Position numbers and translations under genes: made by a program. Below, piece by piece: positions 4,749-41,078 of a stretch of 64,000 nucleotides of DNA. The stretch comes from Thermoanaerobaculia bacterium (GTDB lineage Bacteria; Acidobacteriota; Thermoanaerobaculia; Gp7-AA8), in the NCBI GenBank assembly GCA_036398925.1, contig DASWOB010000050.1, forward strand, positions 79,399-143,398, in the 5' to 3' direction. Under the pieces are notes generated by a model, which saw nothing but the letters and a program-made list of their open reading frames with translations, was not told where the DNA came from and ran no database searches. The stretch's first letter is position 1. Every line of letters starts with the position of its first letter.

Positions 4749-4749
<1 letters not shown>

Positions 4750-6107
4750 TACAGGCCGAACCAGGATCGGATGCGTGCGAGGGTCGTCTTCTGCTCGTCA
4801 CCGCCCGTGGTGCGCCGGGAGTCGAGCGAATCGCGCCGCGCCATCACCTTTTCGGAGATCGACGACGCCAGCTCCGGATGATCGCGCATCACCGGCTGCA
4901 GCGCGTTCTTCGCGATCTCGATCGCCACGACGTCGCTCGCCGCCACGATGTCGGCGGTGCGGGCCTCGCCGGTGAGCAGCGCCATCTCACCAAAGAAGTC
5001 GCCGGCGGTCAGGCGCGCGACGTCGCTGCCGTCGATCCGCACCACCACTTCCCCCTCGTGCACGATGAACATCGAATCGCCCGCGTCTCCACGGCGCAGG
5101 ATGGTCTCGCCGCGCGAATAAAAGTGGACGCGTGCCGCGGCGGCAATGCTCTGCAGGCTTTCGTCCGACAGCGGCGTGAGGACGTCGATCCGGCGGAGGC
5201 GTTCGAGCAGTTCCGGCTCGCTGACGTGCTGCCCCTCGTCGGGCTGCTGGTAGCGCTGCACGGAGCGGATCGGGAACGGGATGGTGATCCCGTTGCGGCG
5301 CAGCGCGTACCAGATCGCCTTGCGGATCTCGGCGTCGATCCGGTCGCGCTGCGAGTAGTCGTTCATGAAGTATTTGATGTCGTACGTCACGGCCGAATCG
5401 GCGAACCCCGCCACCCGCGCAAAGCACGGCATCTCCCGCACGACCCCTTCCACGTTCACGGTGGCCTGGGTCAGCACGTTGATGACCGTGGCCGGCGGGA
5501 AGTGGTAGTCGATGCCGACCTGCAGCACGCGCGCGTTGACGTTGTTCTTCGGAAAGACCTCCAGCCGCTCGCGGGAGACCAGCGAGTTCGGGAGGATGAC
5601 CAGGTTGTTGTTGAACGTGCGGATTCGCGTGCCGCGCCAGCGGACGCTCTCCACGACTCCGATCGAGTCCCCGGAGCGGATCACGTCGCCGACCTCGAAC
5701 GTATCTTCCATATGCAGGGCGATGCCGGAGAAGAGGTTACCGAGCGTGTCCTGCAGCGCCAGGCCGAGGATCGCGGCGAGGATCGTTCCGGTGGCGAGAA
5801 AGCCGGTCACCGAGTAGTGGAAGATCGCCGAGATCGCCCAGGCGAAAGCCAGGAAGTAGAGGGCGATGTCGAAGATCTCGCGCAGCAGCAGTGGCGCGTT
5901 GACGTGCTTGCGGCGCCGCGCGATCAGCTCGAAGGCGATGTAGTCGATCAGCCGGACGCCGAAGAAGATGATCGGCAGCCATGCGCCGAACAGCAGCCAG
6001 GCGTCGAAGGTCGGCTTGAGGAGCTTGCGGTCGTGGACGAACGAGTAGACGGCGAAGAGTGCCGCGCCGAGGAGCAGCGGGACCAGCAGGCGCGACGCCC
6101 GTGTCAC
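4749..6107 (-). CDS. MscS-family mechanosensitive channel with a C-terminal cyclic-nucleotide-binding domain.
   Basis: The TM region is followed by an MscS beta-domain (GDVIRSGDSIGVVESVRWRGTRIRTFNNNLVILPNSLV). A C-terminal cNMP-binding-like segment (RGETILRRGDAGDSMFIVHEGEVVV...GDFFGEMALLTGEARTA). The start is assigned to a GTG at 6107 that overlaps the upstream stop (GTGA). The ORF stays open up to 6320, so the start is uncertain. Confidence 0.75.
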
Positions 6108-6349
6108 GGCTGCTCCCCCCCCTCTTTGCGCTCGCGCATGAAACGCCTCACGTCGCGGATGCCGATGATCAGGTGCACGATCCCGAAGCCGGAGATCAGG
6201 CCGCGTACGAACGGGTTGTCCGCCCACATGCCGAGCGTGAGGGAACTGTGCAGGAGCGGGTTCAGGGTCCAGACCCGCGTCCACGGCACGATGGTGAAGA
6301 AGAGCCCCGCCTCCAGGCAATAGAGGGCGAAGAACAGGGGGACGGTCAT
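6104..6349 (-). CDS. Small hydrophobic membrane protein (81 aa), first gene of the MscS/NtrC operon.
   Basis: ATG at 6349. Two predicted TM helices (MTVPLFFALYCLEAGLFFTIVPW; GLISGFGIVHLIIGI). The stop overlaps the proposed MscS start. No family recognised. Confidence 0.5.
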   Translation of the reverse strand: MTVPLFFALYCLEAGLFFTIVPWTRVWTLNPLLHSSLTLGMWADNPFVRGLISGFGIVHLIIGIRDVRRFMRERKEGGEQP

Positions 6350-19337: not shown

Positions 19338-19398
19338 ACTTCCCACCTTCACCATCTCGCCCTCCACTCGCAGCCCTGACTCCATCCTTCGCCTGCTC

Positions 19399-19923
19399 TC
19401 AGCGCTTCTCGTTCGGCGGCGTCAGATCCTTCACGACTTCGCGGTATCGCTCGATGCGAGTCGGATCGTTCACTTCCTGACGGAACACCACGCTCGTCGT
19501 CGTGATCCGGATGACTTCACCATCCAGAACCTTGTCGCCGACGCGGATCAGATAGCCTTTGTTGTCCGGACCGTTGATCATCGCAGCGAGGCCCTGCCGG
19601 GTCCGGAAGATGCCCTGCAGCTTCATCTCGTCGATGAGGAAGCCCGGCACGCCGGCGGGACGCTGCCCCGCTTCCAGCTTCGGCGCCGGCCCGATCAGCG
19701 AACGGAACGGATCGCGCCGTCCCTGCGGATCATAACGGTACGTATCGGTCGTGGTCGGCTCCTCGAGGATCTCCTCGAGCGACTTCTGCACGTCCGAGCC
19801 GCCGGTGGTCGCCGGCGTATCGGTGGTCGTGGCCGTACTGGTAGCAGGCGGAGTCTGGGCAACCGTCGCGACCGTAGCCGTGACGAGCACCAGCGAAGTG
19901 AAAAAATTCGTTTTCTTCATCAC
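19399..19923 (-). CDS. pilP: Type IV pilus assembly lipoprotein PilP.
   Basis: Signal/lipoprotein N-terminus, a Thr-rich linker and a C-terminal PilP beta-domain (LQGIFRTRQGLAAMINGPDNKGYLIRVGDKVLDGEVIRI). The gene lies in the pilMNOPQ order. Confidence 0.75.
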   Translation of the reverse strand: MMKKTNFFTSLVLVTATVATVAQTPPATSTATTTDTPATTGGSDVQKSLEEILEEPTTTDTYRYDPQGRRDPFRSLIGPAPKLEAGQRPAGVPGFLIDEMKLQGIFRTRQGLAAMINGPDNKGYLIRVGDKVLDGEVIRITTTSVVFRQEVNDPTRIERYREVVKDLTPPNEKR

Positions 19924-19931
19924 GTCTCCGC

Positions 19932-20558
19932 CTACTCCCCAGCCTCGCCGCCCGGTCTTGCGCCGCCCGGCTTCTTGTCATCCGGCTTCTCTTCCACCGG
20001 CTCGGTGTAGACGAACGTCTTCGCGGTGAAGCTCGACGTGATCGTGCGCTGCTCCTGTGCCCCGAGCGCCGAGATCGAGATGTTCTCGACGTTCATGATG
20101 CGCGAGAAGTTGCCGAGGCGGTTGAAGAGGATGGCCAGGTCATGGTAGCGGCCGTCGACGGAGACCGAGATCGGCCACTCCACGTACGGATCGGCCGACC
20201 CGGCGCCCAGCGGCGGGAAGGTCAGGCTCTTGAGCGTGAACTCACCCTGGTCGACCAGCGACTTGAGCTTCTTGATGATCTCTTCGGTATTGCGCGTGGA
20301 CGGCAGGATGCGGCGCAGCTTTTCGAGCTCCAGCTCGAGCCGCTTCACTTCCTCGCGGAACTGCGGCAGCTTCCGTTCGGCGGCCTGACCCTGCTGGATC
20401 TTCCGTTCGAGCTCCGCGATCTGATTGTCGGCGGTGACGATGTCCTGCTTGATCTCCTTGACCAGCAGGTAATCGGTCACGAAGACGATCGCGACGGCGA
20501 GCACGATGCCGACCAGCAGCCCCACCCACCACGGTTTGTCGTCCAGCGTCAGTGCCAT
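19932..20558 (-). CDS. pilO: Type IV pilus assembly protein PilO.
   Basis: A single N-terminal TM helix, a coiled coil (ELERKIQQGQAAERKLPQFREEVKRLELELEKLRR) and a periplasmic domain. Position in the operon. Confidence 0.8.
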   Translation of the reverse strand: MALTLDDKPWWVGLLVGIVLAVAIVFVTDYLLVKEIKQDIVTADNQIAELERKIQQGQAAERKLPQFREEVKRLELELEKLRRILPSTRNTEEIIKKLKSLVDQGEFTLKSLTFPPLGAGSADPYVEWPISVSVDGRYHDLAILFNRLGNFSRIMNVENISISALGAQEQRTITSSFTAKTFVYTEPVEEKPDDKKPGGARPGGEAGE

Positions 20559-20567
20559 CGGTGTCTC

Positions 20568-21230
20568 CTACTGCGTCGCGGTGGTGCCGGTGGTGGATGT
20601 AGTCGACGTGGCCGTCGCATCCCCCGCGGTCCCTTCCGCTCCTTTCGGCCCGTACGTAAAGGCGAAGTTCATGTCGAAGGTGTAGACCAGCGGCGTAACT
20701 GAAGCCTGCGTCATCGCCCCCACCTGCGGCTCTTCGAAGTACGGGTCGTTCTTCACGTTCTCGATGAAGAGCGCGATCGCGTTCGGGTTCAGGCCGCGTC
20801 CGGCGAGCGTCACCCTCCCGGCGTTGATCGTCATGCTGTCGAGCCAGACCAGGTCCGGAAGGTCGCGGCTGATCTGATCCATGATCCGCACCGGCCCCTT
20901 CTGGTTCTTCTTCAGCTCGTTGATCAGGTCGATGCGCTGCTGGAGGTTGTCCTTCCGCTTCTGGAAGTCCTCCACCTCTTTGATGATGGACTCCAGGCGG
21001 TCGGCGATCAGCTTCCGCTGCGCGATCGTCTCCTGGCGCTCGGCCAGCTGCTGCTTCTGGTAGAACCAGTAGCCCCCCGCCGCCAGAGCCCCGAGGAGCA
21101 GCAACGCCACGATGAAGATGTTGTTGACGTTCGTGCCCGCGCCACCGCCTACGCCAGCCGCAGCTGCCGCGGGCGCGGCTCCAGCACCGCGAACCGCCCG
21201 CCCTTCCCGCACTAAGTTGATCTTGATCAA
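20568..21230 (-). CDS. pilN: Type IV pilus assembly protein PilN.
   Basis: MIKINLV..., one TM helix, a coiled coil, and synteny (stop/start overlap with pilM). Confidence 0.8.
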   Translation of the reverse strand: MIKINLVREGRAVRGAGAAPAAAAAGVGGGAGTNVNNIFIVALLLLGALAAGGYWFYQKQQLAERQETIAQRKLIADRLESIIKEVEDFQKRKDNLQQRIDLINELKKNQKGPVRIMDQISRDLPDLVWLDSMTINAGRVTLAGRGLNPNAIALFIENVKNDPYFEEPQVGAMTQASVTPLVYTFDMNFAFTYGPKGAEGTAGDATATSTTSTTGTTATQ

Positions 21231-22285
21231 GCGTCCCCCAACTTCCTCATGGCCAGGCCGACGGCGATGGCCATGCTCGGCGCGATCTCAGCCAGTTCCT
21301 CGGGGTTGAATTGGCTCTCGTCGACGTTGATTTTCCGGAAGGGGTCCATGATCGACACCGGGATGCCGAACTTGTCGCGCAGGATGGCGTCGAGGTTGAG
21401 CACACCCGAGCCGCCGCCGGCGAGCACGATCTCGTCGACGCGCTCGGCGCCGGAGGTCGCGGTGAAAAAGTCGAGCGTCTTCCGCAGCTCACCCGCGAAG
21501 TCCTCGGAGACCGAGTTGAGGATCGGGATGACCTGCTGGATCGTGTAATCCGCCACCGGCCGCCCTCGCTTGAGCTCCTCGGCCTGCTCGAACGAGAGGC
21601 TCAGCTCGCGCTGGATGGCATCGGTGTACTGATTGCCGCCGAACGTGATGTCACGCCAGAACATCGAGGTGGAGCCGGAGAGCACGTTCACGTTCGTGAC
21701 CGAGGCTCCGACGTTCACGAGCGCCAGGACCTTGGTGTCCTCGAGCTCGTAATTCACCTCGTAGCAGTTCTGGAGCGCGAACGCATCGACGTCCACGAGC
21801 ACCGGCAGCTTGCCGCTCTGGCTGATCACCGACGTGTAGTCGTTGATCTTCTCCTTCTTCACCGCCACGAGGATCACGTCGATGTTGTCGCCGGCTCCCG
21901 GACTGGTGAGCGGGACGTAGTCGAGGTTCACGTCGTTGATGTCGAAAGGGATGTACTGCTCGGCTTCCCACTGGATCGACTCGGAGAGCTCCTCCGGCGA
22001 CATCGCGGGCAGCGTAATCTTCTTGATGATCACGGAGTGGCCGGAGAGGGATGTCGCGTAATTGGAATTCTTTACGCTCTGATCCGTGTTCAGCCGCTGG
22101 ATCGTCTCGACCACCATGGAGGAATCCATGATGGACCCGTCGACGATCGCTTCCGGAGAGAGGCGTTCCGCACCCAGCTTCACCAGCGAGTACGCTCCGC
22201 CCTTCTTCTCCTTCAGCTCGACGAGTTTGATTGCTGAGGAGCCGATATCAAGGCCAACAACATTTTTGCTCTTTGAGAAGAACAC
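21227..22285 (-). CDS. pilM: Type IV pilus assembly ATPase-like protein PilM (actin-like fold).
   Basis: VGLDIGSSAIKLVEL... and the FtsA/actin-like domain arrangement. First gene of pilMNOPQ. Confidence 0.9.
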   Translation of the reverse strand: MFFSKSKNVVGLDIGSSAIKLVELKEKKGGAYSLVKLGAERLSPEAIVDGSIMDSSMVVETIQRLNTDQSVKNSNYATSLSGHSVIIKKITLPAMSPEELSESIQWEAEQYIPFDINDVNLDYVPLTSPGAGDNIDVILVAVKKEKINDYTSVISQSGKLPVLVDVDAFALQNCYEVNYELEDTKVLALVNVGASVTNVNVLSGSTSMFWRDITFGGNQYTDAIQRELSLSFEQAEELKRGRPVADYTIQQVIPILNSVSEDFAGELRKTLDFFTATSGAERVDEIVLAGGGSGVLNLDAILRDKFGIPVSIMDPFRKINVDESQFNPEELAEIAPSMAIAVGLAMRKLGDA

Positions 22286-26018: not shown

Positions 26019-27998
26019 TCACGCCGTCAGTGTACGACCGCCGCCATGCTCGAGCCGCGCGATGACCTTGGTCAGGTCCTCGTGCCCGCCGACCAGCAGC
26101 ATCGTGTCGCCGGCCTGCAGCGGCTCCCCGACCGGCAGCGGCGTCAGCGCCTGGCCGTCGCGCAGCAGCGCCGCGACCCCGACCCCGTCGTCCGTCAACC
26201 GCATCTCCCCGAGCGTGCGCCCCTCCGCGAACGAATCGGGCAGCACCATGAACGTCTGCGACAGGCCGGCCGCGAAGATCGCGGAGAGCCTGCGCCCATC
26301 GGTGGCCCGTACGGCCGGATCGCGCAGCATCTTGTATCCCTCGTCGCGCAGCACCCGAATCTGATTGGCGACGATGTTCTGCGGCACGCACATGACCCGC
26401 AGCGTACGGGTGACGATTTCCAGCGACGTCTCGAACTCCTCCGGAATGACTTCATCGGCACCGATCTGCCGAAGCGGATCGACCTCCGCCACGTACCGCG
26501 TCCGCACGATCACATGCACGTCCGGATTGAGCGAGCGGCAGAAGCGGACGATCCGCCGCGTCCCATCGGCATCCGAGATGGCCACGATCACCAGCACCGC
26601 CTCGGCGATTCCGGCGAGCTGCATCGCGTGCGGATCGGCGGCATCCGCCATCAGCGCACGGCTGCCGGCCTTGCGCGCGGCGGCCACGCGATCCGGATCC
26701 TCCTCCAGCACCACGTGCTTCACGCCGGTCGACACCAGCACGCGCGCCACGTTCTGGCCGTTCAGCCCATAGCCGACGATCACGACGTGATGGCGCAGCG
26801 GCTCGCGCTCTTGCAGGTCTTCCTCCGGTGCCGCGTCATGCAGCCGCGCCGCGAGCCGGCTTCCCGCCGCGACCAGCAGCGGCGACGCCGCGAGCGTCAT
26901 CACCGCCACCGCTACGAAAGTCTGCTCCCCCGTGTTGCCCAGCAGCCCCACCTTCTTGCCGGCCTGCGCGAGCAGGAACGAAAACTCCCCGATCGGAGCG
27001 ATGGCGAACGCCGCCCGGATCGAGGTACGCCGCACCGCCGGCGACAGGCGAAAGGCCGGGTACGCGCACAGCACCTTCAGCAGGACGATCCCCGCCACCA
27101 TCCCCACGATCAGCAGCGGATGGGCGAGGAAGAACATCGGATCGAGCAGCATCCCGATCGAGGTGAAGAAGAGCGCCGAGAGAAAGTCGCGGAACGGCCG
27201 CAGCACGCCCTCGATCTCGTGGATGAACTCCGTCTCACCGACCACCAGCCCCGCCGCGAAGGCGCCGAGGGCGGGCGAGATGCCGAGCCGCTCCGCGATC
27301 GCGATGGTCACCACGATCAGGACCACCGACGCTGCGGTGAACGTCTCCCGCCCCATCCGGGCGATGCGCGCAAAGAGACGCGGCACGATGTATCGCGCCA
27401 CCACGATCAGCAGCACCACGCCGACGATGGCGATGGCCACCCGCTGCATCACGAGCCCGGGCGAGGCGGCCCCCGGCCCGCCGACGGCGAAGGCCGGCAC
27501 GAGCAGCATCAGCGGAATGACCGCGAGATCCTGAAAGAGCGACACGCCGAGAAACTTCCGCGCGAACGGCGCCCCGATCTCATCGCGCGCCGTCAGGATC
27601 GGCAGCACCACTGCCGTCGACCCGAGCGCCACCAGGATGCCGTAGAACAACCCGAGCCGCAGCGGACGCCCGATCATCACCGTGATCGCCGCCACGGCGA
27701 AGGTGGTCAACCCCATCTGCAACGGCCCGGATAAAAACGCGGTCCGTCCGAGCGCCCGCAGTCGCGCCAGCGGAACGTGCAACCCGATGAAGAAAAGGAT
27801 CAGCGCCACCCCGAGCTCCGCGATCGACTCGACCGCTGCCGTCTCATGGATCCACGCCAGCGCATGCGGCCCGATCAGGATGCCGGCCAGGATGTAGCTC
27901 AGCACCTCCGGCACGCCGAAACGCCGCCCGAGGTAGAGGAGCGGAAAAGCGGCGACCAGAATGATCGCCATATCGAAGAGCAACGGCTGGTCGTGCAT
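26019..27998 (-). CDS. CPA2-family monovalent cation:proton antiporter (KefB/KefC-like) with a C-terminal RCK/TrkA-N domain.
   Basis: An N-terminal Na_H_Exchanger-type 12-TM region. VVIVGYGLNGQNVARVL (Rossmann GxGxxG). A TrkA-C-like C-terminus. Confidence 0.85.
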   Translation of the reverse strand: MHDQPLLFDMAIILVAAFPLLYLGRRFGVPEVLSYILAGILIGPHALAWIHETAAVESIAELGVALILFFIGLHVPLARLRALGRTAFLSGPLQMGLTTFAVAAITVMIGRPLRLGLFYGILVALGSTAVVLPILTARDEIGAPFARKFLGVSLFQDLAVIPLMLLVPAFAVGGPGAASPGLVMQRVAIAIVGVVLLIVVARYIVPRLFARIARMGRETFTAASVVLIVVTIAIAERLGISPALGAFAAGLVVGETEFIHEIEGVLRPFRDFLSALFFTSIGMLLDPMFFLAHPLLIVGMVAGIVLLKVLCAYPAFRLSPAVRRTSIRAAFAIAPIGEFSFLLAQAGKKVGLLGNTGEQTFVAVAVMTLAASPLLVAAGSRLAARLHDAAPEEDLQEREPLRHHVVIVGYGLNGQNVARVLVSTGVKHVVLEEDPDRVAAARKAGSRALMADAADPHAMQLAGIAEAVLVIVAISDADGTRRIVRFCRSLNPDVHVIVRTRYVAEVDPLRQIGADEVIPEEFETSLEIVTRTLRVMCVPQNIVANQIRVLRDEGYKMLRDPAVRATDGRRLSAIFAAGLSQTFMVLPDSFAEGRTLGEMRLTDDGVGVAALLRDGQALTPLPVGEPLQAGDTMLLVGGHEDLTKVIARLEHGGGRTLTA

Positions 27999-30389: not shown

Positions 30390-31046
30390 ATGTCTGACTT
30401 CCTTGCCGCCGCCCTGTCGTTCCCGACGGTCGTCTATACGGTCGCGCTCGTTTTCTTCCTGCTTTATGCCCTGGCTACGCTTCTCGGCGCGGCGGACATC
30501 GAGTGGCTCGACAACGTGCTGCACATCGACCACGCCAACGACACGATCTTCGAGGGAGCCCTCAGCTTCCTCGGCATCAGCGGCGTTCCGGTGATGATCT
30601 TCGGCGGCGTCGCCTCGGTGTTCGCCTGGATCGCTTCGATCGCTGCGATGAAGTTCGTCCCCGATTCGATGCTCTTCGCGACCCTGGCCGGCCTCGGCGC
30701 GGGTGTGGCCGGCCTGGCCCTCGGCTCGCTGGCCGTCCGGCCGCTGCACGGCATCTTCAACACCGCCACCGGCCCGCAGCGCTCCGGCATCGTCGGCAAG
30801 GTCTGCACGGTCCGCTCGCTGCGCGTCGACGAGACCAGCGGCACGGCGGAAGTGGACGGCGGCGCCGGCTTCATCGCCGAGGTGCGCTGCATGCGTGAGA
30901 ACGCCATGACCCGCGGCAGCAAAGCGATCGTCTACGACTACGACCCCAAAGAAGGTATCTACTTCATCGGCCCGCTCGATCGATCGGTGGCCGAGGTTGA
31001 TGCAGCACTCATCACCGCATCTCGCAGCCCGCAGGCCGAGAGCTAG
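30390..31046 (+). CDS. NfeD-like membrane protein (YqiJ-type) with a C-terminal OB-fold.
   Basis: Four TM helices, then GKVCTVRSLRVDETSGTAEVDGGAGFIAEVRCMRENAMTRGSKAIVYDYD (NfeD beta-barrel). Immediately upstream of the flotillin gene. Confidence 0.75.
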   Translation: MSDFLAAALSFPTVVYTVALVFFLLYALATLLGAADIEWLDNVLHIDHANDTIFEGALSFLGISGVPVMIFGGVASVFAWIASIAAMKFVPDSMLFATLAGLGAGVAGLALGSLAVRPLHGIFNTATGPQRSGIVGKVCTVRSLRVDETSGTAEVDGGAGFIAEVRCMRENAMTRGSKAIVYDYDPKEGIYFIGPLDRSVAEVDAALITASRSPQAES

Positions 31047-31055
31047 GAGACATCC

Positions 31056-32945
31056 ATGGATCTGTTCATCGCTATCGTCGTCGGTGCCATTTTTCTGCTC
31101 ATCGCCACCTTCGTGGTCGGCGTGATGATCGCGAAGTTCTACCGCAAGGTGGAGCAGGGGAAGGCGCTCATCGTCAACAAGATGAAGGCCGAGCCCGAGG
31201 TCACGTTCACCGGCGCGACCGTGCTGCCGATCATCCACAAGGCGGAAGTGATGGACATCTCGGTCAAGACCATCGAGATCGACCGCCGCGCGAAGGACGG
31301 CCTGATCTGCCGCGACAACATCCGCGCCGACATCAAGGTCACGTTCTTCGTCCGCGTGAACAAGACCGTCGATGACGTGATCAAGGTCGCGCAGTCGATC
31401 GGCTGCGTCCGCGCCTCCGATCCCGGCACGCTCGAAGCGCTGTTCAGCGCCAAGTTCTCCGAGGGGCTCAAGACCGTCGGCAAGCAGCTCGACTTCGTCG
31501 ACCTCTACACCAAGCGCCACGAGTTCCGCGACGCGATCATCAACCTGATCGGCCGCGACCTGAACGGCTACGTCCTCGAGGACGCCGCCATCGACTACCT
31601 CGAGCAGACGCCGATCGTGAACCTCGATCCGATGAACATCCTCGACGCGCAGGGCATCCGGAAGATCACGGAGCTGACCTCGACCGAGCACGTGCGCACG
31701 AACGAGTTCCAGAACACCGAGAAGAAGCTCACCAAGAAGCAGGACGTCGAGGCGCAGGAAGCGATCCTCGAGCTGGAGCGCCAGCAGGCCGATGCCGAGG
31801 CCAAGCAGAAGCGCGAGATCGAATCGGTCCGCGCCCGCGAGGCCGCCGAGCTGCACAAGATCCAGGCGGAGGAGCGCCGCCGCGCCGAGACCGCCCGCAT
31901 CGCCACCGACGAGGACCTGGCGATCGCCGAGCAGAACAAGCAGCGCCAGATCGAGGTCGCGCAGAAGAACCGCGAGCGCGTGGTCGGCATCGAGACCGAG
32001 CGCGTCGAGAAGGACCGCATGCTCGAGCAGGTCACGCGCGAGCGCGCCGTGGCCCTCTCGCAGATCGACAAAGAGAAGGCCCTCGAGGTCGAGCGGAAGA
32101 ACATCCAGGAAGTCATCCGCGAGCGCGTGGTCGTGGAGCGCAGCGTGGTCGAGGAGCAGGAGCGCATCAAGACCGTGCAGATGCTCGAAGACGCGAAGCG
32201 CAACCGCGAGGCGGTGATCATCGCCGCCGAGGCCGAGGCGCAGGAGAAGCTCGTCAAAGACATCAAGGCCGCCGAAGCCGCCGAGCAGGCGTCGCACCAC
32301 ATCGCCAGGCAGCGCGTCACGCTCGCGGAATCGGAAGTGGAAGCCGCCGACCGCGAAGCGCGCGCGAAGATCCGCCTCGCCGAAGGTCTGCAGGCCGAAA
32401 GCGCCGCGGAAGGGCTCGCCGCCGCGAGGGTCAAGGAAGCGGATGCCATCGCCAGCGAGAAGCATGGCCTGGCCGACATGCGCGTGAAAGAGGCCGAAGC
32501 GAACGCGATCGCGAAGCTCGGCGCGGCCGAGGCGTCGGTCATCGAGCAGAAACTCTTCGCCGAAGCGGCCGGTATCACCAAGAAGGCCGAAGCGATGAAG
32601 CAGCTCGACACCGCGTCGCGCGAGCACGAGGAGTTCCGCCTGCGCATCGAGACCGAGCGGATGCTCGGCACCGCGCACATCGCAGCGCGCCAGAAGGTCG
32701 AGGAAGCGAAAGCGCAGATCCTCGGCGTGGCGCTGCAGAACGCCAAGATCGACATCGTCGGCGGCGACGGCCAGTTCCTCGACCGCATCGTGAACTCGGT
32801 CGGAATGGGCAAAGCCGTCGACCACTTCCTCGGCGAAAGCGAGACCGCGCAGGCAGTGCTGGCGAAGCTGGGAGTGGCCAAACCGGCCAGCGAGATCGTG
32901 CCTCCGACGGTTTCGGCGAAAGTCCCGGTCGTGCGCGCCGACTAG
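31056..32945 (+). CDS. Flotillin-family SPFH/band-7 protein (YqiK/FloT-like).
   Basis: An AGGAGA RBS. An N-terminal TM helix, an SPFH domain and a long Glu/Ala/Arg-rich coiled coil (EAQEAILELERQQADAEAKQKREIE...). Confidence 0.9.
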   Translation: MDLFIAIVVGAIFLLIATFVVGVMIAKFYRKVEQGKALIVNKMKAEPEVTFTGATVLPIIHKAEVMDISVKTIEIDRRAKDGLICRDNIRADIKVTFFVRVNKTVDDVIKVAQSIGCVRASDPGTLEALFSAKFSEGLKTVGKQLDFVDLYTKRHEFRDAIINLIGRDLNGYVLEDAAIDYLEQTPIVNLDPMNILDAQGIRKITELTSTEHVRTNEFQNTEKKLTKKQDVEAQEAILELERQQADAEAKQKREIESVRAREAAELHKIQAEERRRAETARIATDEDLAIAEQNKQRQIEVAQKNRERVVGIETERVEKDRMLEQVTRERAVALSQIDKEKALEVERKNIQEVIRERVVVERSVVEEQERIKTVQMLEDAKRNREAVIIAAEAEAQEKLVKDIKAAEAAEQASHHIARQRVTLAESEVEAADREARAKIRLAEGLQAESAAEGLAAARVKEADAIASEKHGLADMRVKEAEANAIAKLGAAEASVIEQKLFAEAAGITKKAEAMKQLDTASREHEEFRLRIETERMLGTAHIAARQKVEEAKAQILGVALQNAKIDIVGGDGQFLDRIVNSVGMGKAVDHFLGESETAQAVLAKLGVAKPASEIVPPTVSAKVPVVRAD

Positions 32946-32952
32946 TCCATCC

Positions 32953-33062
32953 CCAGTGTCATCCTGAGCCCGCGCAGACGGGCGAAGGACCCCCTTCGAC
33001 ATGCGCGACGCCACGTGCATCCGCAAGCGCCGGGGGGTCCTTCGCTTCGCTCAGGATGACAC
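32953..33062. repeat. Nested hairpin of about 105 bp between the flotillin gene and the giant ATPase gene.
   Basis: Outer stem gtgtcatcctgagc / gctcaggatgacac. Inner stem gaaggaccccc / gggggtccttc. Confidence 0.55.
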
Positions 33063-33101
33063 GTGGGAGCGGGGGCTCCCCGCAACGCGAGGAACCGATT
33101 C

Positions 33102-36100
33102 ATGACCATCGAACGCGGCACCTACGAAGTCATCCGCGACCGCCTTTCGGCGCAGGGGAAAACCCTCGCTGAAAAGGCGGCGCGCCTCAACGCACGCCGG
33201 ATCGAGCTGTTCGGCGGGGCGGAGATGGCCCTCCTCGGCAGCGATCGCATTCGCACCGAGAACAACTGCGTGCCGCGCGACATCGCGGAAGCGGGCAGCC
33301 TCCTGCTGTTCGGCTACAACGTCTTCATCGGCCTCAAGACCGAGACGCAGGTGTCGGATGTCTTCTCGCTGCACCGCGTCGACAACTTCGCGGCGGTGCC
33401 GGCCGATGCGCCGGAGAACTTCCTCCGCGATCCGAAGTTCGCTCACGACTTCCGCGAGCTCTATCAGTACTACCGCAACTCGCGGCTGCTGCAACTGCGG
33501 CGCGTCGAGTCGAAGCTGCTGGCGGTCTTCCAGACCGGCGAGAAGCTGACCGACCTGCGCGTCTTCCGCTGGCAGGTGGCGGTCGACGGCAGCGTCACCT
33601 ACATCGACAACCGCGGCGAGCGCGATCACGTCTACCCGCCGCGCCACGACTTCGAGTGGATTGCCACCTCGCGCGAGCACCACGTGAGCGGCAAGCATCC
33701 GCACTGCTCGATCGAGGACAGCCTCTTCGTCGAGACCATCGGCGGCGACGTCACGTTCAAGATCGAGGACAACACCTCGACGGGCCGCGGCATCTTCAGC
33801 GAGCCGGTCGACGATCCCGATCAGTCGCTCGACGACGCGCAGATTCACTACGCGGTCATCGGCACGCTGATCCTGGTGAAGCTCCTCCCCTATCGCGAGA
33901 AGAGCTGGCGCTATTACGTCTTCAACAAACGGACGAAGAGCGTGCGGCGCATCGACGCCATCGGCGCCGCCTGCATCCAGCTTCCCGAGGATCACGGCAT
34001 CATCTTCCCGGGCGGCTACTACCTCCGCACCGGCGACGCCAGGATCTTCGAGGAGCACGATCCGAACGGGATGGAGTTCCTGCGCGCGGTCCGCGCGCCG
34101 AACGGCGAGGACGTGCTCTACGCGTTCCACCGCCGCGATGAAGGGCGGACGCTGCTTTTCTCGTACAACCTCATTCGCAAAGAGGTCGTCAACCCGCTCA
34201 GCTGCCACGGCTACTCGCTGTTTGCCGACGGCAAGATGATCATCTTCTCCGCGACCAGCAACGAGCCGACCCGCGTCCATCCGATGCAGATCTGGCAGAC
34301 GCCGTTCGTCAGCGACGACCACCTGGCGAAGACGCCGCAGCCAAATACGTTTCTCGGCAAGGTCGGCAACCGCGATCTCGTGCGTGGTCTCTCCAGCGCG
34401 CTCTCGATCTGCCGCCTCGTCGACGAACAGACCCCGTCGCGCGCGACCTACGAAGACATGGTCGCGGCCACCGCGCGGGTCATCGACGCGTATCACTGGA
34501 TCGGTCACGCCGAAGCCGAAGACCTCCTCTCCACGATCAAAGAAGTCCGCGCCACCGCGGAGCTGATCATCGATGAGTTCGAGAAGGTGGAGGCGCTGCG
34601 CGCGCAGGCCTCGAAGGCGGTCGGCGACGTCGAGCAGTCGCTCAACGAAAAGCGTCCCGAGCCGGCATCCATCGACGACTACGTCGCGCAGCTCGGCGAG
34701 CTCCGTTCGAAGCAGGGGCACATCATTTCGCTGCGCGAGCTGCGTTACGTCGATCGCGCGAAGCTCGACGCGCTCGAAGCGGGCGTCGTGGCGCGCTTCG
34801 GCGAACTGTCGCAGGCCACGGTGCAGTTCCTCCTCGACGAGAAGGCGCTGGCGCCGTTCGCCGAAAAGACCACCTACATCGAAACGCGCATCGCCAACGT
34901 CCAGAAGACCACCGACGCCGAGGCGCTCGTGCGCGAAGTCGAAGGGGTGGTCGGGTCGCTGAATCTCCTGACCGAGATCATCGGCTCGCTGCAGATCGAA
35001 GACCCGTCGGTGCGCATCCGGATCCTCGAGCGGATCTCGCAGCTGATGTCGGGCCTCAACCGCGTCCGCGCGCTCGTCGCGCAGCGGCGCAAGGAGCTGC
35101 TCGGCAAGGAACGCGTCGCCGAGTTCGCGGTGCAGTTCTCCCTCTTCACCCAGACCGTCTCCAGTTCCGTCTCCGGCACCGACACGCCGGAGCGCTGCGA
35201 TACCGAGCTGTCGAAGCTGATGCTGCAGCTCGAAGAGCTGGAGACCCGCTTCAGCGAGTTCGACGACTTTGTGGCGCAGCTCGCGGCCAAACGCGAAGAG
35301 GTGTACGACGCCCTCACCGCGCGCAAGCAGTCGCTGCTCGAACAGCGGCAGCGCCGGGCGGAGCAGCTGCAGCAGGCCGCGACGCGCATTCTCCAGGGGA
35401 TCACCCGCCGTGCCGGCACGCTCGGCAACGTCGACGCGCTGAACGCGTTCTTTGCCTCCGACCCGATGGTGGCCAAGCTCCGCTCGACGTCCGAGAAACT
35501 GCGCGAGCTGGGCGACATCGTGCGCGCCGACGAGATCGACGGCAAGCTCAAGACCGCGCGCGACGAAGCCGCACGCTCGCTGCGCGACCGGAACGAGCTG
35601 TTCGAGGAAGGGTCGAACGTGGTCCGCTTCGGCGAGCACCGCTTCAGCGTCAACACGCAGCCGGTCGAGCTGACCATCGTTCCGCGCGAAGAGCGCCCCC
35701 ACCTCCACATCACCGGCACCGGCTTCTTCGAGCCGATCGAAGAAGAGCTGGCCTATCCGAATCAGGAGCTGGTCTCCGAGACCGAAGAGGTCTACCGCGC
35801 CGAGTACCTCGCCTACGTGGCCCGCAACGGCGACGTGCGCGAAGCGATGGCGGCGCGCTACGACGAAGGCTACGAGCGCGGCGTGCACGATCACGACGCG
35901 CAGCTCATCGCCGAGAAACTGCGCGGCATGATGTCGACCGCCGGCCTCCTGCGCTACACGCCGAACGCGCGCGCCGCCGCCACGCTCTTCTGGGCCTTCT
36001 TCCCGGATGAATCGCTCAAAGCGCAGTGGTCCGCGCACGCGAAGGCCCTTCTGGACTGCGGTGGCAACGCCACCGCTCTCGCCCAGGAACTGCAGCAAGC

Positions 36101-38180
36101 CATCGAAACCTGGCTCCCCGTCGACTGCGGCAACATCCGCAACGCCGGCGCCTACCTCTGCGAAGAGATCTCGCAGCAGCCGATCCGCTTCGTGCTCAGC
36201 GCCGAAGCCGCGGACTTGTTGAACGCGGCGATCCCCAACCTCCGCGACCTCGACTGGCAGCGCAAGCTCGCCGTCGTGCGCACGTCCGTCCCGAACCTCG
36301 AAGCGGCGGCAGCGATCGTCACCAACGGCACGCTCTCGCGCGAGCGCTCCTCCGCGATCATCCAGACGAAGATCACCGGCCTGCTCGGCCAGCACCCGCG
36401 CATTGCCGGCGGCACGATGGAGCTGCGCCTCGACGAGTTCCTGGCGCGCCTCGGCACGTTCGAAGCGGAGCGCGTCCCCGCCTTCCGCGCCTACCAGCAG
36501 AAACGCCACGCCATCCTCGAGCGCGAGCGGAAGCGCCTGCGCCTCAGCGAGCTGCAGCCGAAGGTGATGTCCGCCTTCGTCCGCAACAAACTGATTTCCG
36601 AGGTCTACCTCCCGCTCATCGGCGCCAATTTCGCGAAGCAGATGGGCGTGGCCGGCGAGAAAAAGCGCACCGACCTGATGGGCCTTCTGCTGCTCGTCTC
36701 CCCCCCCGGCTACGGCAAGACCACGCTGCTCGAATACATCGCGGTGCGCCTCGGCCTGGTCTTCGTGAAGATCAACGGTCCGGCGCTCGGCCACTCGGTG
36801 AAATCGCTCGACCCGAACGAAGCGCCGAACGCCACCGCGCGGCAGGAGATCCTCAAGCTCAACCTCGCCCTGGAGATGGGGAACAACGTGCTGCTGATGA
36901 TCGACGACATCCAGCACACGCACCCGGAGCTCCTCCAGAAGTTCATCTCGCTCTGCGACGCGCAGCGCAAGATCGAAGGCTGCTGGCGCGGCGAAACGCG
37001 CACGTACGACCTGCGCGGCAAGCGCTTCGCCGTCTGCATGGCCGGCAACCCGTACACCGAGTCGGGCGAGAAGTTCGAGATCCCCGACATGCTCGCCAAC
37101 CGCGCCGACGTCTACAACCTCGGCGAAGTGCTGGCCGGCCGCGACGAGCTGTTCGACCTCAGCTACATCGAGAACGCCCTCACCTCCAACAGCATCACCG
37201 CGCCTCTGCTCACGCGCGATCCGAACGACGTGCAGAAGCTGGTGCGCATGGCGCGCGGCGAACAGGTGCAGGCCGACCAGCTCTCGCACGACTACTCCTC
37301 GGTCGAGCTGAACGAGCTGCTCGGCGTGCTGCGCAAGCTCAGCGTCGTGCAGCAGCTCCTCGCCCGCGTGAACCGCCAGTACGTCCTCTCGGCCGCGCAA
37401 CAGAACGCCTACCGCACCGAGCCGTCGTTCAAGCTGCAGGGCAGCTACCGCAACATGAACAAGCTCGCGGAGAAAGTCCTCCCCGCGATGAACGACGACG
37501 AGCTGCAGCGCCTCATCGACGACCACTACCTCGGCGAAGCGCAGACCCTCACCGCCGGCGCCGAAGAAAACCTCCTCAAGCTCGCCGAGCTCCGCGGCCG
37601 GATGACCGACGCCCAGCGCACCCGCTGGCAAGAGATCAAGCGCGGCTTCACCCGCGTGCAACGCCTCGGCGGCACCGAAGCCGACCCCGCCGCCCGCGTC
37701 ATGGCCGAACTGAGCGTCGTCAGCGACCGCATCGGCGAAGTGGCCCGCGCCATTGCCGGAGCGATCTCCGCCGCGGAAGCGCCGGCCGTCGCCCCCGTCG
37801 CAGCGCCCGCACCCACCCCGGTCGTCATCTCCGCCCCCGCCGTGCCGTCGCTCGACCTCACCCCCTACCTCGCCAAACTCGACGAAACCCTGCACGCCCT
37901 GCGCGAGCTCCACACCGCAAGACTCCCGATCGCCGCCGCATCCGCCGTCGTCGCCGCGCCCGCGCAACCACCGGCGTCCTCCCGTGAGGCCTACCTCATC
38001 CAGGACACCCTGATCCCCCTCCTCCGCTTCATGGCCCACCGCTTCAAGAGCTACCGCTCCGTCGCCGACCCGAAAGTGAAGCAGGCCATCGCCCGCCTCG
38101 AGTCGGTCAAGGACCTCGACCAGCTCGTGAGCACCCTGGAGAACATCAACGTCTCAGCGCTGGCGACGTTGACGGAGTAG
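33102..38180 (+). CDS. Giant (1,692 aa) protein with a long coiled-coil region and a C-proximal AAA+ (MoxR/AAA_5-like) P-loop ATPase domain. Function unknown.
   Basis: A GAGGA RBS then the ATG at 33102. Walker A LLLVSPPGYGKTTLLEYIA, Walker B NNVLLMIDDIQ and sensor-1-like FAVCMAGNPYTE. Extensive predicted coiled coil at aa 450-1000. It contains a 29-bp in-frame fragment of the MITE terminal repeat at 36051-36083. Confidence 0.8.
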   Translation: MTIERGTYEVIRDRLSAQGKTLAEKAARLNARRIELFGGAEMALLGSDRIRTENNCVPRDIAEAGSLLLFGYNVFIGLKTETQVSDVFSLHRVDNFAAVPADAPENFLRDPKFAHDFRELYQYYRNSRLLQLRRVESKLLAVFQTGEKLTDLRVFRWQVAVDGSVTYIDNRGERDHVYPPRHDFEWIATSREHHVSGKHPHCSIEDSLFVETIGGDVTFKIEDNTSTGRGIFSEPVDDPDQSLDDAQIHYAVIGTLILVKLLPYREKSWRYYVFNKRTKSVRRIDAIGAACIQLPEDHGIIFPGGYYLRTGDARIFEEHDPNGMEFLRAVRAPNGEDVLYAFHRRDEGRTLLFSYNLIRKEVVNPLSCHGYSLFADGKMIIFSATSNEPTRVHPMQIWQTPFVSDDHLAKTPQPNTFLGKVGNRDLVRGLSSALSICRLVDEQTPSRATYEDMVAATARVIDAYHWIGHAEAEDLLSTIKEVRATAELIIDEFEKVEALRAQASKAVGDVEQSLNEKRPEPASIDDYVAQLGELRSKQGHIISLRELRYVDRAKLDALEAGVVARFGELSQATVQFLLDEKALAPFAEKTTYIETRIANVQKTTDAEALVREVEGVVGSLNLLTEIIGSLQIEDPSVRIRILERISQLMSGLNRVRALVAQRRKELLGKERVAEFAVQFSLFTQTVSSSVSGTDTPERCDTELSKLMLQLEELETRFSEFDDFVAQLAAKREEVYDALTARKQSLLEQRQRRAEQLQQAATRILQGITRRAGTLGNVDALNAFFASDPMVAKLRSTSEKLRELGDIVRADEIDGKLKTARDEAARSLRDRNELFEEGSNVVRFGEHRFSVNTQPVELTIVPREERPHLHITGTGFFEPIEEELAYPNQELVSETEEVYRAEYLAYVARNGDVREAMAARYDEGYERGVHDHDAQLIAEKLRGMMSTAGLLRYTPNARAAATLFWAFFPDESLKAQWSAHAKALLDCGGNATALAQELQQAIETWLPVDCGNIRNAGAYLCEEISQQPIRFVLSAEAADLLNAAIPNLRDLDWQRKLAVVRTSVPNLEAAAAIVTNGTLSRERSSAIIQTKITGLLGQHPRIAGGTMELRLDEFLARLGTFEAERVPAFRAYQQKRHAILERERKRLRLSELQPKVMSAFVRNKLISEVYLPLIGANFAKQMGVAGEKKRTDLMGLLLLVSPPGYGKTTLLEYIAVRLGLVFVKINGPALGHSVKSLDPNEAPNATARQEILKLNLALEMGNNVLLMIDDIQHTHPELLQKFISLCDAQRKIEGCWRGETRTYDLRGKRFAVCMAGNPYTESGEKFEIPDMLANRADVYNLGEVLAGRDELFDLSYIENALTSNSITAPLLTRDPNDVQKLVRMARGEQVQADQLSHDYSSVELNELLGVLRKLSVVQQLLARVNRQYVLSAAQQNAYRTEPSFKLQGSYRNMNKLAEKVLPAMNDDELQRLIDDHYLGEAQTLTAGAEENLLKLAELRGRMTDAQRTRWQEIKRGFTRVQRLGGTEADPAARVMAELSVVSDRIGEVARAIAGAISAAEAPAVAPVAAPAPTPVVISAPAVPSLDLTPYLAKLDETLHALRELHTARLPIAAASAVVAAPAQPPASSREAYLIQDTLIPLLRFMAHRFKSYRSVADPKVKQAIARLESVKDLDQLVSTLENINVSALATLTE
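36051..36083. repeat. Partial copy (one terminal repeat) of the MITE-like family, embedded in frame in the giant gene.
   Basis: ctggactgcggtggcaacgccaccgctct matches 28/29 to the terminal repeat of the other copies. It encodes ...LLDCGGNATAL.... Confidence 0.5.
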
Positions 38181-38451: not shown

Positions 38452-38868
38452 TCAAGGCGTGAGCGCGCGCTTGCGCCGCGCCTCGGTGGCCGCGCGCGAG
38501 GGGACGGCCTCGCCGTAGGAGCGTTCGTAGGCGGCGCGCATGTTTTCGAGGTGCTCGACCAGCTCCGGGTGCTCGCCGGTCTGCACCAGTTCCTCGGCCT
38601 TGTAGTAGATGTCGAGGGCCATCTCGAAGGCCCGCTCCTGCGCTGCTTCGACGGTGGTGCGCAGCTCGTCCGCGAGTGACTGCGAGGCCTCCAGCACCGT
38701 CTCCAGCTCGAAATCCGACAGCGCTTCGAGGTCGGCGTTGCGCAGGTCGCGCAGCATGGCGCGCGCTTCGTCCGCGTTTCCCGGCACGACCGGAGGGCCG
38801 GCGGGCAGGCGGTCGCGCACCTCGGTGAGGCGACCCAGAATCGTTTCTGCACTCATCTTCTTGGGCAT
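38452..38868 (-). CDS. Hypothetical alpha-helical protein (138 aa).
   Basis: The ATG at 38868 is in frame, preceded by a GGAGAC RBS. GC-biased third codon positions. Acidic helical sequence with no recognisable family. Confidence 0.5.
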   Translation of the reverse strand: MPKKMSAETILGRLTEVRDRLPAGPPVVPGNADEARAMLRDLRNADLEALSDFELETVLEASQSLADELRTTVEAAQERAFEMALDIYYKAEELVQTGEHPELVEHLENMRAAYERSYGEAVPSRAATEARRKRALTP

Positions 38869-38941
38869 TGGGGAGTCTCCTGTCGGACGAAAAACCGGGC
38901 GCGCGGCAACGCGCCACGCACCCGGTCCTTTCACTCATACG

Positions 38942-39475
38942 TCATTCGGCGGCGGCCGGCGCCGGCGCTTCGATGCGCTTGCGGCGAAGGCGCGCGCCGA
39001 ACATGTTCAGCCGGCGCATCGCTTCGATGTGCGGCAGCAGGTCGGCGTGATCGCTGCTCCGCGCCAGCTGCTGGCTGATGCTGTAGGTCTGCAGCGCCGC
39101 CAGACCGAGGTGATAGCGCCGCGTGAGATTGCCCGCGCGGACGCCCTGCAGCACCTTGGTCAGCTCATCCTCCACGCTCGACCAGCGGACGACCTCCGAC
39201 ACGTCGCCACGCATGTCGTCCGCCGTGGCGCCGAGGGCCGTTTCGACGGCCGGCGACGCACCGACGGCGTTGATGGAGGCGTCGACGAACGGCCGCGAGA
39301 CCGCGGCTACCCGCGCCATCGCTTTGAGCGCGTCCCTGTCGAGCGGCCCGTACATCGGGATGTGCTGCCGCAGGATGCGCAACTGCTCGACGATCTGCTC
39401 CGGGGTCATCTGCACGAAATCTTTCGACGGCGGCTGAACTGCTTCGGTCTTGGTGCGTTTGTTCACGATACTCAT
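38942..39475 (-). CDS. Hypothetical alpha-helical protein (177 aa).
   Basis: The ATG at 39475 is preceded by a GGAGAG RBS. GC-biased third codon positions. No family recognised. Confidence 0.5.
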   Translation of the reverse strand: MSIVNKRTKTEAVQPPSKDFVQMTPEQIVEQLRILRQHIPMYGPLDRDALKAMARVAAVSRPFVDASINAVGASPAVETALGATADDMRGDVSEVVRWSSVEDELTKVLQGVRAGNLTRRYHLGLAALQTYSISQQLARSSDHADLLPHIEAMRRLNMFGARLRRKRIEAPAPAAAE

Positions 39476-39825
39476 GATGCTCTCTCCTCTCGAACCGGCC
39501 TTTGTTCCGGTTCCGCGATGTTGAACGGGCGGACTTGCGATGCCAGTCACAAGCTCGCCCGGTGAATCGCGCGGCCACGCGCCGTCGATTCGGTTTCAAT
39601 GATTGCCCGAAGCCATGGTTCTCCGGGGACCTCACCGGGGCGGGCTGGAGGAGCTGAGCTCTACCCCACGATGGTCGGCCGCGGCCTTGACTCAAGCCAT
39701 TGCGATCGGTCGTTTGCCTTGACTCAAGATGCACCCGGCGCCATATATTTGTCAACAGCTGAGCTGTTACAATTTTTAATGTTACAGAAATTGCTCTCGA
39801 TCGAAAGACGCGCGCTCTTCCGGTC

Positions 39826-40122
39826 ATGGAGATCGCGCACGACGGGAAGCAAAATTTGCACGACGGGAAGAGCCGCGCTCACGCCGGGAAGAGCGTTTTC
39901 CACGCGGGGAAGAAAAAGTTGCTCGACGGGAAGGGCGTGGCTCACGACGGGAAGAGCGGCGCTCTCGATCGGAAGGACTTTTTTCACGGCGGCAAGAGCG
40001 GCGGCCACGATCGGAAGAGCGTTTCTCACGAGCGCATCAGAATTTTCCTCGAGCGCGAGAGCCGCCGTCACGACCGGAGCAGCGTCCTTCATCGAATTGT
40101 GACGCTCGCTCATCAGCGTTGA
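39826..40122 (+). CDS. Possible small protein made of HDGKSxx heptad repeats, encoded by a 21-bp tandem DNA array. The coding status is uncertain.
   Basis: About 12 imperfect 21-bp repeats (cacgacgggaagagcg.....) between 39835 and 40095. The plus frame has about 77% GC3, versus about 64% for the antisense ALPVVxx frame. The stop overlaps the next ORF. Confidence 0.3.
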   Translation: MEIAHDGKQNLHDGKSRAHAGKSVFHAGKKKLLDGKGVAHDGKSGALDRKDFFHGGKSGGHDRKSVSHERIRIFLERESRRHDRSSVLHRIVTLAHQR

Positions 40123-40160
40123 GACCTCCGGTGATGACCGATGACGTACAACGTGTCGCC

Positions 40161-41078
40161 ATGAAGTCGCTGCTCCTCGCGCTCCTCCTCGCCGCTCATG
40201 CCGCCGACGTCACCGCCGATTGCCGTCATCTCCTTTTCGCAACCGGCGATGACGGCCGTCCTTCCGCCGGATCGAAAGAGACGCTGCAGCGAGCAGTCGC
40301 CGCCGGCACGCCGATCCGCGTCTGGTGGGGCATCGACGCCGATCGCGACGGCAAACACGACGTCACGCACTGGGCCGACGCCGTGTTTCTGACGGAATTC
40401 GAGGGGGAGCTCTTCACGCAGATCACCGAGATCCGCCGGCAGTCGCCGAAGGCCGGCACGGCGCACGTGAACCTCCATCCGGAGCCGGTCCGCTGGACCG
40501 GTTCCGTCGGCACGAACGGCACGCTGGAAGGTGCCTTCGACCCGGCCCTGGGTGAGCCGCGGCAGATGAAGCTGGCCACGAAGTGGTGCGCGAACGTGCC
40601 GCCGGACTGTTCCTCCGGCTGGCGCCTGGCGTACGAGCACGATCGCGACGGGAAGGCGCTGGGCGGCTCGAAGGAGCAGCTCTTCGCGGCGGTGCGGCGC
40701 GGCTATCCCATCCGCATCGCCTGGGGGATGCGCACCAACGACGGGAAGATCTCCGTCGAGCACGCGAGCGATACCGTCTTCGTGACCATCATGAACGGCG
40801 CGGAGGTCGTCGCGCAGCTGCCGGAGCACGCCAGCCAAACCTCGTACTGGAACGCGCAGGAGGCGAACTTTGACGCCGCCGGTGTGCTGTGGCGCGGAAT
40901 GATGTCGACCACCGGCGGCTTTGACGCGGTGTTCGTGAACCGCGGCAGCGGCGAGGTCACGAAGCGCCTGCCGCAGCGCGCGCGCATGCGCTGGATGGTG
41001 CTCGCCCCGCCCGCGGAGTGCGAGACGACGGCGGCGCCGGAGCTGGCAGTGACGGGTGGGGTGATCGTGGAGAAGTGA
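40161..41078 (+). CDS. Secreted protein with an internal tandem domain duplication.
   Basis: Signal peptide MKSLLLALLLAAHAADVTADC. The two halves are alike (GSKETLQRAVAAGTPIRVWWGIDADRDGKHDVTHWADAVFLTEFEGELFTQI versus GSKEQLFAAVRRGYPIRIAWGMRTNDGKISVEHASDTVFVTIMNGAEVVAQL). Confidence 0.6.
   Translation: MKSLLLALLLAAHAADVTADCRHLLFATGDDGRPSAGSKETLQRAVAAGTPIRVWWGIDADRDGKHDVTHWADAVFLTEFEGELFTQITEIRRQSPKAGTAHVNLHPEPVRWTGSVGTNGTLEGAFDPALGEPRQMKLATKWCANVPPDCSSGWRLAYEHDRDGKALGGSKEQLFAAVRRGYPIRIAWGMRTNDGKISVEHASDTVFVTIMNGAEVVAQLPEHASQTSYWNAQEANFDAAGVLWRGMMSTTGGFDAVFVNRGSGEVTKRLPQRARMRWMVLAPPAECETTAAPELAVTGGVIVEK

Follow-up and report, generated by a model that had tools for sequence, protein, structure and literature searches.

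Among the bacterial systems that resemble the locus analysed here, a three-gene cassette at positions 30,390 to 38,180 of a 64,000-nucleotide stretch from a Thermoanaerobaculia bacterium (contig DASWOB010000050.1; hereafter, the window), are the NfeD2-SPFH2 pairs yqiJ-yqiK from Escherichia coli and yuaF-floT from Bacillus subtilis (Hinderhofer et al. 2009, PMC2636767). Like the first two genes of the cassette, each pair encodes a small protein with transmembrane (TM) segments and a beta-rich part, followed by a TM-anchored coiled-coil flotillin, but both lack the third gene, which in the window encodes a large ATPase. An association of band-7/flotillin proteins, YqiJ/YuaF proteins and a "beta-propeller AAA+ ATPase" has been described by Ravi et al. 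2024 (mSystems, PMC11237479), with PspA/CesT in the longer operons, a wider distribution of "abbreviated operons" without PspA, and a predicted role in sub-membrane dynamics. The association of flotillin and ATPase is therefore already published as a computational observation. From the sequence evidence, the best reading of 30390-38180 is that of one co-inherited three-gene cassette, an abbreviated, PspA-less form of this neighborhood, and there is about an even chance that the cassette acts as an ATP-driven remodeller or chaperone of the flotillin assembly, or of its clients, in membrane maintenance.

The window triad appears to comprise the same three proteins, with the same architecture, as the cassette of Ravi et al., and a Hymenobacter locus recovered here (Tir-like chaperone, PspA, DUF1449, flotillin, and "DNA repair ATPase") reproduces the Bacteroidota example of that paper. 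On the other hand, the window holds neither the CesT/Tir-PspA dyad nor a phospholipase D gene near the triad, and it is the lack of a PspA homologue that leads to its filing as the abbreviated version. For the ATPase, Ravi et al. report neither a Pfam identity nor a structure, counts or an experiment; its equivalence with the DUF3686 family is suggested by the matching Hymenobacter locus and is not stated there. Direct term searches of the searchable literature for DUF3686/PF12458, or for flotillin or YqiJ-YqiK together with an ATPase, returned nothing, and the SPFH surveys that were examined make no mention of the ATPase. Links of SPFH proteins to ESCRT-III and AAA+ proteins have also been noted in archaea (PMC10936438).

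A locus scan restricted to one genome per species yielded at least 589 loci with the ATPase, from which the 80 closest were retrieved; 5 more distant ones were added from a plasmid collection, and in 78 loci the sequence available ahead of the ATPase gene amounts to 3 kb or more. In 75 of these 78, the ATPase gene is directly preceded by the flotillin and NfeD-like genes on its own strand. The first-pass annotation, made from the letters of the window, had proposed the linkage of the ATPase to an NfeD-flotillin pair and had named a lack of linkage in most other genomes as the observation that would speak against it; the opposite is clearly the case. Carriers of the triad are spread over at least seven phyla, and include Acidobacteriota, Myxococcota, Actinomycetota, Planctomycetota, a metagenome-assembled genome (MAG) of Clostridia, Gammaproteobacteria (Pseudomonas plasmid pQBR103, Proteus, and Vibrio), Deinococcota, and Bacteroidota. 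When the neighboring open reading frames (ORFs) were clustered, only the three triad families recurred across loci: no fourth conserved gene family was found near the triad in the 80 loci, and none of the genes flanking it in the window is conserved beside it in the other loci. The pairwise distances of the three proteins correlate over 41 loci (r 0.94-0.97), which fits their inheritance as a unit, although the shared phylogeny of the species contributes to this correlation.

Some copies and records of the family deserve separate mention. Two homologues from Thiotrichales, L046:9908-13531 from a MAG and L076:9920-13480 from Candidatus Venteria ishoeyi, end at approximately 1,190-1,200 residues, before the AAA+ module. 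No AAA-coding DNA was found downstream of L076, nor flotillin or NfeD genes upstream of either, and these homologues may represent a truncated variant or decaying copies. A comparison of the Proteus ATPase gene at the DNA level with 5,426 complete E. coli genomes (blastn, "distant" mode) gave no match. Three of the PLSDB hits (H1, H3, and H4) are chromosome-sized records, such as those of Proteus mirabilis (4.08 Mb) and Nonomuraea gerenzanensis (11.85 Mb), filed in PLSDB as plasmids, and counts of plasmid-borne members of the ATPase family are therefore inflated.

By its sequence, the ATPase is a standard member of the family defined by DUF3686, DUF7902, and AAA. It matches the Pfam models DUF3686 (PF12458) with an E-value of 3.2e-205 (682 bits, cutoff 25), DUF7902 (PF25472) with 2.6e-21, and AAA with 3.2e-6 (28.1 bits, cutoff 21.2; residues 1196-1273), while AAA_5 remains under its cutoff of 22 with 20.9 bits. 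This fixed architecture is common to more than 5,700 homologues, and the same three domains are present in 120 of 120 homologues among the matches listed. From 1.84 billion representatives, a profile of the N-terminal domain recovers at least 893 clusters at 50% identity, with DUF3686 in N-terminal position in full-length family representatives of 1.6-1.9 kaa (thousands of amino acids). The family is named "DNA repair ATPase" by NCBI and "MoxR-like ATPase" by JGI.

The core of the DUF3686 domain, which is highly conserved, resembles a beta-propeller with about six four-stranded sheets, a resemblance established by comparison with solved structures only. It is followed by a helical stalk that contains DUF7902 and gives a weak match of the coiled-coil type to LmuB, and by a mostly helical, globular middle region that is approximately 100 residues shorter than in most homologues. 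In an AlphaFold2 (AF2) model of residues 860-1580, blocks are predicted at pLDDT (predicted local distance difference test) values of 62-92, and a fold search with this model found no match outside the AAA+ part. The best fold matches of the AAA+ module are the MoxR proteins NorQ and CbbQ, and a beta-hairpin precedes its sensor 1. The Walker A Lys, the Walker B DD, the sensor-1 Asn, and the Arg of ANRAD, a candidate arginine finger, are invariant in diverse homologues. Conservation along the protein is highest in two blocks, the AAA core and the propeller. Behind the AAA+ module come a helical domain (1420-1560), a variable linker rich in Ala and Pro (1560-1625), and a conserved helical tail at the C-terminus (1625-1692) with the motif LIPLL...KID/INV. 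No TM segment was found by hydropathy, and no nuclease, protease, toxin or DNA-binding domain by Pfam. The protein had been considered unplaceable in any known family, with an unknown globular region in its N-terminal 430 or so residues and some 600 residues of coiled coil. The family is, however, large, the N-terminal region is DUF3686 itself, and the coiled-coil prediction has to be reduced to approximately 390 residues, the segment 861-1150 being helical but globular in the AF2 model. The motifs GYGKTT, DDIQ and AGNPY were correctly recognized, and the call of a MoxR-like AAA domain is supported by the fold.

Regarding the partner proteins, the flotillin has an N-terminal TM anchor (residues 1-30, from hydropathy), an SPFH domain, a long coiled coil rich in E, A, R, and K, and a conserved C-terminal segment. 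Its relationship to YqiK, as originally called, is borne out by comparison with the protein from E. coli MG1655, the source of both the YqiK and YqiJ references: BLASTP gives an E-value of 1e-38 with 27% identity over 531 residues, and hhalign a probability of 99.7% over 274 columns of the N-terminal part. Homologues in the databases are named "flotillin family protein" or "YqiK". The flotillins of the triad form a divergent subfamily, with 42-48% mutual identity across phyla and only 27% to E. coli YqiK. Neither membrane protein of the window reaches a cutoff in Pfam or NCBIfam, and the flotillin has no Band_7 or Flot match, while its orthologue from pQBR103 passes the Band_7 cutoff of Pfam. 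Since most triad flotillins escape the Band_7/Flot models, surveys of SPFH proteins based on domains undercount them. Sequence and profile searches against the PDB yielded no match for either membrane protein.

The product of the first gene is predicted from hydropathy to have about three N-terminal TM segments (approximately 3-38, 53-90, and 93-116), followed by a beta-rich C-terminal domain of approximately 80 residues. Its similarity to YqiJ consists of weak signals (YqiJ_N, E 0.28; BLASTP against E. coli YqiJ, E 2e-4; hhalign probability, 63%), and the orthologue from Hymenobacter is annotated as DUF1449. As these links are weak, its assignment as an NfeD/YqiJ-like protein is mainly owed to architecture and position.

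The coordinates of the cassette and its features are collected in Table 1. The three ORFs run in the same direction and have coding-type G+C contents at the third codon position (GC3) of 0.87-0.93, in a window with 66% G+C, and only 9 nucleotides separate the stop codon of the first gene from the start of the second. The three same-strand genes and the 1,692-residue product of the earlier description are all confirmed by the ORFs. The ATPase ORF first opens at a GTG at 33063. This codon was rejected as the start, as it falls inside a palindrome and the homologues begin at the equivalent of MTIERG. The ATG at 33102 is therefore taken as the start: it has GAGGAA 8 nucleotides upstream, and the resulting product is identical (100% over 1,692 residues) to a database protein from a Thermoanaerobaculia MAG (P0001). 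A scan of the locus for promoters and terminators was uninformative: no promoter was found, and terminator-like sites were about as frequent as chance predicts.

Table 1. Features of the cassette and of the predicted ATPase, with positions in the window.
Feature	Position	Strand	Size or residues	Basis or remarks
Gene 1, NfeD/YqiJ-like small membrane protein	30390..31046	+	218 aa	ORF and translation
Gene 2, YqiK-type flotillin	31056..32945	+	629 aa	Translation
Intercistronic spacer, flotillin to ATPase	32946..33101	+	156 nt	Palindrome, then ribosome-binding site GAGGAA
Gene 3, cytoplasmic DUF3686-DUF7902-AAA+ ATPase	33102..38180	+	1,692 aa	
DUF3686 domain	33165..34496	+	22-465	Long N-terminal helix, propeller-like core, C-terminal helices
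Helical, coiled-coil-prone stalk	34509..35681	+	~470-860 (~390 aa)	Composition, crude heptad score
DUF7902, within the stalk	34842-35096	+	581-665	Pfam
Middle region, mostly helical and globular	35682..36551	+	861-1150	AF2 model
AAA+ module	36549..37361	+	~1150-1420	
Walker A, GYGKTT	36708-36725	+	1203	
Walker B, DDIQ	36903-36914	+	1268	
Sensor 1, AGNPY	37041-37055	+	1314	
Candidate arginine finger, ANRAD	37095-37109	+		
Post-AAA region	37359..38177	+	~270 aa	AF2 secondary structure, composition, conservation profile

The spacer between the flotillin and ATPase genes, first described as structured and 105 bp long, is indeed structured, but its length is 156 nucleotides. It holds an imperfect palindrome of approximately 120 nucleotides (32950-33068), built from the inverted repeats 32950-32969/33049-33068 and 32982-32994/33033-33045, whose RNA is predicted to fold with a minimum free energy of -89.1 kcal/mol (z -6.6); no T-run was found after it. 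The closest relatives (L005, L006, and L007) hold equally long palindromes in the same position, with sequences unrelated to that of the window, and in several more distant loci the spacer measures 5-35 nucleotides. A plausible role for this palindrome would be that of a hairpin protecting the upstream message, or lowering the expression of the ATPase relative to that of the structural flotillin. Alternatively, it could be an inserted palindromic repeat element, and the palindromes of the relatives the result of repeated capture of such elements.

SPFH cages are known to pair with AAA+ machines, as in the case of HflK/C with FtsH, prohibitin with the m-AAA protease, and SLP2 with YME1L. The cassette may work like these systems, where an SPFH oligomer is coupled, genetically or physically, to an AAA+ ring ATPase. 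FtsH, however, is a membrane-anchored protein of the classical AAA clade with a protease domain, whereas the ATPase of the window is predicted to be soluble and MoxR-like, with a propeller and a long stalk but no protease. A second parallel is offered by ESCRT-III/PspA and their Vps4-type ATPases, where a membrane-shaping polymer is served by a dedicated AAA+ remodeller, and PspA itself adjoins the triad in some genomes; unlike Vps4-type systems, the window ATPase has no MIT domain and belongs to another AAA+ clade, there is no PspA at the locus, and a flotillin takes the place of an ESCRT-III protein as the obligate partner. The reading of the ATPase as a remodeller follows from the recurrent logic of both kinds of pairing, and would be by analogy.

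The flotillin, with its single N-terminal TM anchor, and the NfeD-like protein would form an SPFH oligomer (a cage or microdomain) at the cytoplasmic face of the inner membrane. The soluble ATPase would oligomerize through its MoxR-like AAA+ module and reach this assembly, or the proteins within it, by means of N-terminal beta-propellers held on long helical arms. The binding and hydrolysis of ATP would then remodel, disassemble or load the flotillin assembly, as part of membrane maintenance or of the handling of envelope stress. Cage formation, the contact between ATPase and flotillin, the oligomeric state, the remodelling activity, and the role in stress are all presumed steps of this model. 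The first-pass suggestion of a flotillin-associated scaffold or remodelling ATPase is accordingly plausible, as a proposal. A more specific and rather doubtful version, proposed here tentatively, is that the ATPase would be a dedicated machine for the assembly and disassembly of bacterial flotillin cages, a "Vps4 for flotillin", in which a MoxR-like AAA+ ring would cap the SPFH dome and grip the flotillin or NfeD subunits with arms that end in propellers.

A link with membrane stress is suggested by the PspA-type genes adjoining the triad in pQBR103 and Hymenobacter. In the former, a plasmid from Pseudomonas fluorescens SBW25 (L082; record 84.4-97.6 kb), the triad comes directly after a complete yjf cluster, where it is preceded by yjfI, a pspA-family gene (yjfJ), an inserted gene for a rhomboid protease, DUF2491, DUF350, DUF1190, and a glutathionylspermidine-synthase-like gene. 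In the plasmid from Hymenobacter (L084), the triad follows a Tir-like chaperone and PspA, and a LexA-family regulator is encoded divergently upstream.

Several observations weigh against the remodeller reading. The loop at the position of pore loop 1, NGPALGH, is invariant and has no aromatic residue, in contrast to typical threading AAA+ unfoldases, and the Walker B motif ends in DD rather than DE, so that neither classical threading of substrates nor fast hydrolysis would be assured. The identity of the first gene as NfeD/YqiJ is weak at the sequence level, and the evidence for an interaction between ATPase and flotillin, which is presumed, is exclusively genomic. Within the 64 kb of the window, neither tblastn nor Pfam searches of the neighbors detected a homologue of PspA or YjfI. 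Three of the 78 loci, one from an unclassified MAG and the two from Thiotrichales, lack the partner genes, and the sample, consisting of the 80 closest of at least 589 loci and five more distant ones, leaves the most divergent members outside. Finally, no experimental study of any member of the cassette was found in the searchable literature.

The surroundings of the triad in the window are of the housekeeping type, with pil genes, accC, a KefC-like exchanger, SpoT, and SdhA. A type IV pilus assembly cluster occupies 16770-22285 on the minus strand, from pilM (21227-22285) to a PilQ-type secretin with an AMIN domain (16770-19385). Also on the minus strand are an MscS-type mechanosensitive channel fused to a cyclic-nucleotide-binding domain (4749-6320) and the KefC-like Na/H-exchanger protein, with TrkA-N and TrkA-C domains (26019-27998); both are genes of membrane and ion homeostasis, and neither is kept near the triad elsewhere. 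Directly downstream of the ATPase gene, two minus-strand ORFs of 160 and 202 residues (38452-38934 and 38942-39550) have coding-type GC3, no Pfam match, and no conservation in related loci. Two kb downstream of the ATPase gene, an ORF at 40119-41078 on the plus strand encodes a product of 319 residues with a sub-threshold match (E 3.7e-5; 24.2 bits, cutoff 27) to VMAP-C, the C-terminal domain of vWA-MoxR-associated proteins. A MoxR-VWA pairing with this ORF was considered and rejected: it does not lie beside the triad in any other locus, and its adjacency is therefore probably a coincidence.

Other explanations place the work of the ATPase elsewhere. It might be a client-directed chaperone that matures, inserts or extracts a membrane complex, with the flotillin and the NfeD-like protein serving as a platform to concentrate the client and not as the substrate. 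Such a platform would agree with what is known of flotillins as scaffolds and stabilizers of unfolded proteins (PMC11222466). The beta-propeller is a typical module for binding clients or adaptors, and both the fold similarity to the MoxR chaperones NorQ and CbbQ and the lack of an aromatic pore loop are in line with this explanation. MoxR proteins are almost always paired with a VWA protein. No VWA protein, however, is conserved beside the triad, the only signal in the window being the VMAP-C match; no candidate client gene is kept in the neighborhood of the 80 loci; and the known MoxR chaperones (NorQ, CbbQ, and RavA) have approximately 250-500 residues and VWA partners, in contrast to the 1,692 residues of the window ATPase. 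A chaperone of this kind is a plausible but rather unlikely explanation. A structural role seems quite unlikely. The protein would then be a long, nucleotide-switched scaffold with slow or no turnover, tethering flotillin domains to another cytoplasmic structure. The length of the helical stalk and the conserved tail behind a flexible linker would suit such a tether, the Walker B DD is found in switch-type AAA+ proteins such as DnaA, and the two homologues from Thiotrichales stop short of the AAA module, which would fit an N-terminal part able to work alone. Nevertheless, in these two the partner genes are missing as well, and they may be decaying copies; the AAA+ core is the most conserved block, with all its catalytic positions invariant, which would argue for a working ATPase.

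Defence systems had been brought up by the first-pass annotation, but a function in anti-phage defence or abortive infection, with the large ATPase sensing the infection and the membrane proteins acting as effectors, is very unlikely. Large coiled-coil ATPases do occur in defence systems, and the distribution of the family is patchy across phyla and reaches megaplasmids such as pQBR103. The matches of the ATPase to IetA, LmuB, and mad8 in PADLOC-DB 2.0 are nevertheless weak (E 0.001-0.01) and, with 13-16 bits, amount to P-loop and coiled-coil noise; the best of them, to IetA (E 0.0014, 16 bits), covers 29 residues of the P-loop, and neither membrane protein has a match in that database. A search of 50,697 phage records yielded no copy, and no nuclease, protease or toxin domain was found, while the flanks are housekeeping genes, the clusters of flanking genes recur among related genomes, and the recurrent additional neighbors are PspA-type membrane-stress genes, not defence genes. 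Least credible of all is a DNA repair ATPase working on DNA in the manner of the coiled-coil proteins SMC, RecN or SbcC, in spite of the Pfam text for DUF3686 ("ATPase involved in DNA repair"), the NCBI family name, the weak P-loop matches to RuvB, and the divergent LexA-family regulator of the single Hymenobacter locus. The ATPase has a single contiguous, MoxR-like AAA+ module instead of an ABC/SMC head, with no SMC_N or AAA_23-type match. The similarity to RuvB is limited to 50 residues around Walker A and scores 20-21 bits, 14-fold below the equivalog cutoffs of 282-299. Neither a DNA-binding nor a nuclease domain was detected, repair genes are neither present nearby nor conserved beside the triad, and both invariant partners are membrane proteins. 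The name "DNA repair ATPase", under which the DUF3686 family is widely filed in databases, is without support.

The locus in the window adds an ordinary copy to a cassette already known from comparative genomics, and its significance lies in the family. The cassette gives one subfamily of flotillins an obligate, energy-consuming partner, and does so in tractable bacteria, as the triad is also present in the genetically tractable Myxococcus, Proteus mirabilis, Vibrio campbellii, and Pseudomonas fluorescens (pQBR103). If the ATPase were indeed a "Vps4 for flotillin", it would be the first enzyme known to control the dynamics of flotillin microdomains in any organism. As the function, assembly, and turnover of bacterial flotillins are still disputed, the cassette offers a testable handle on them.

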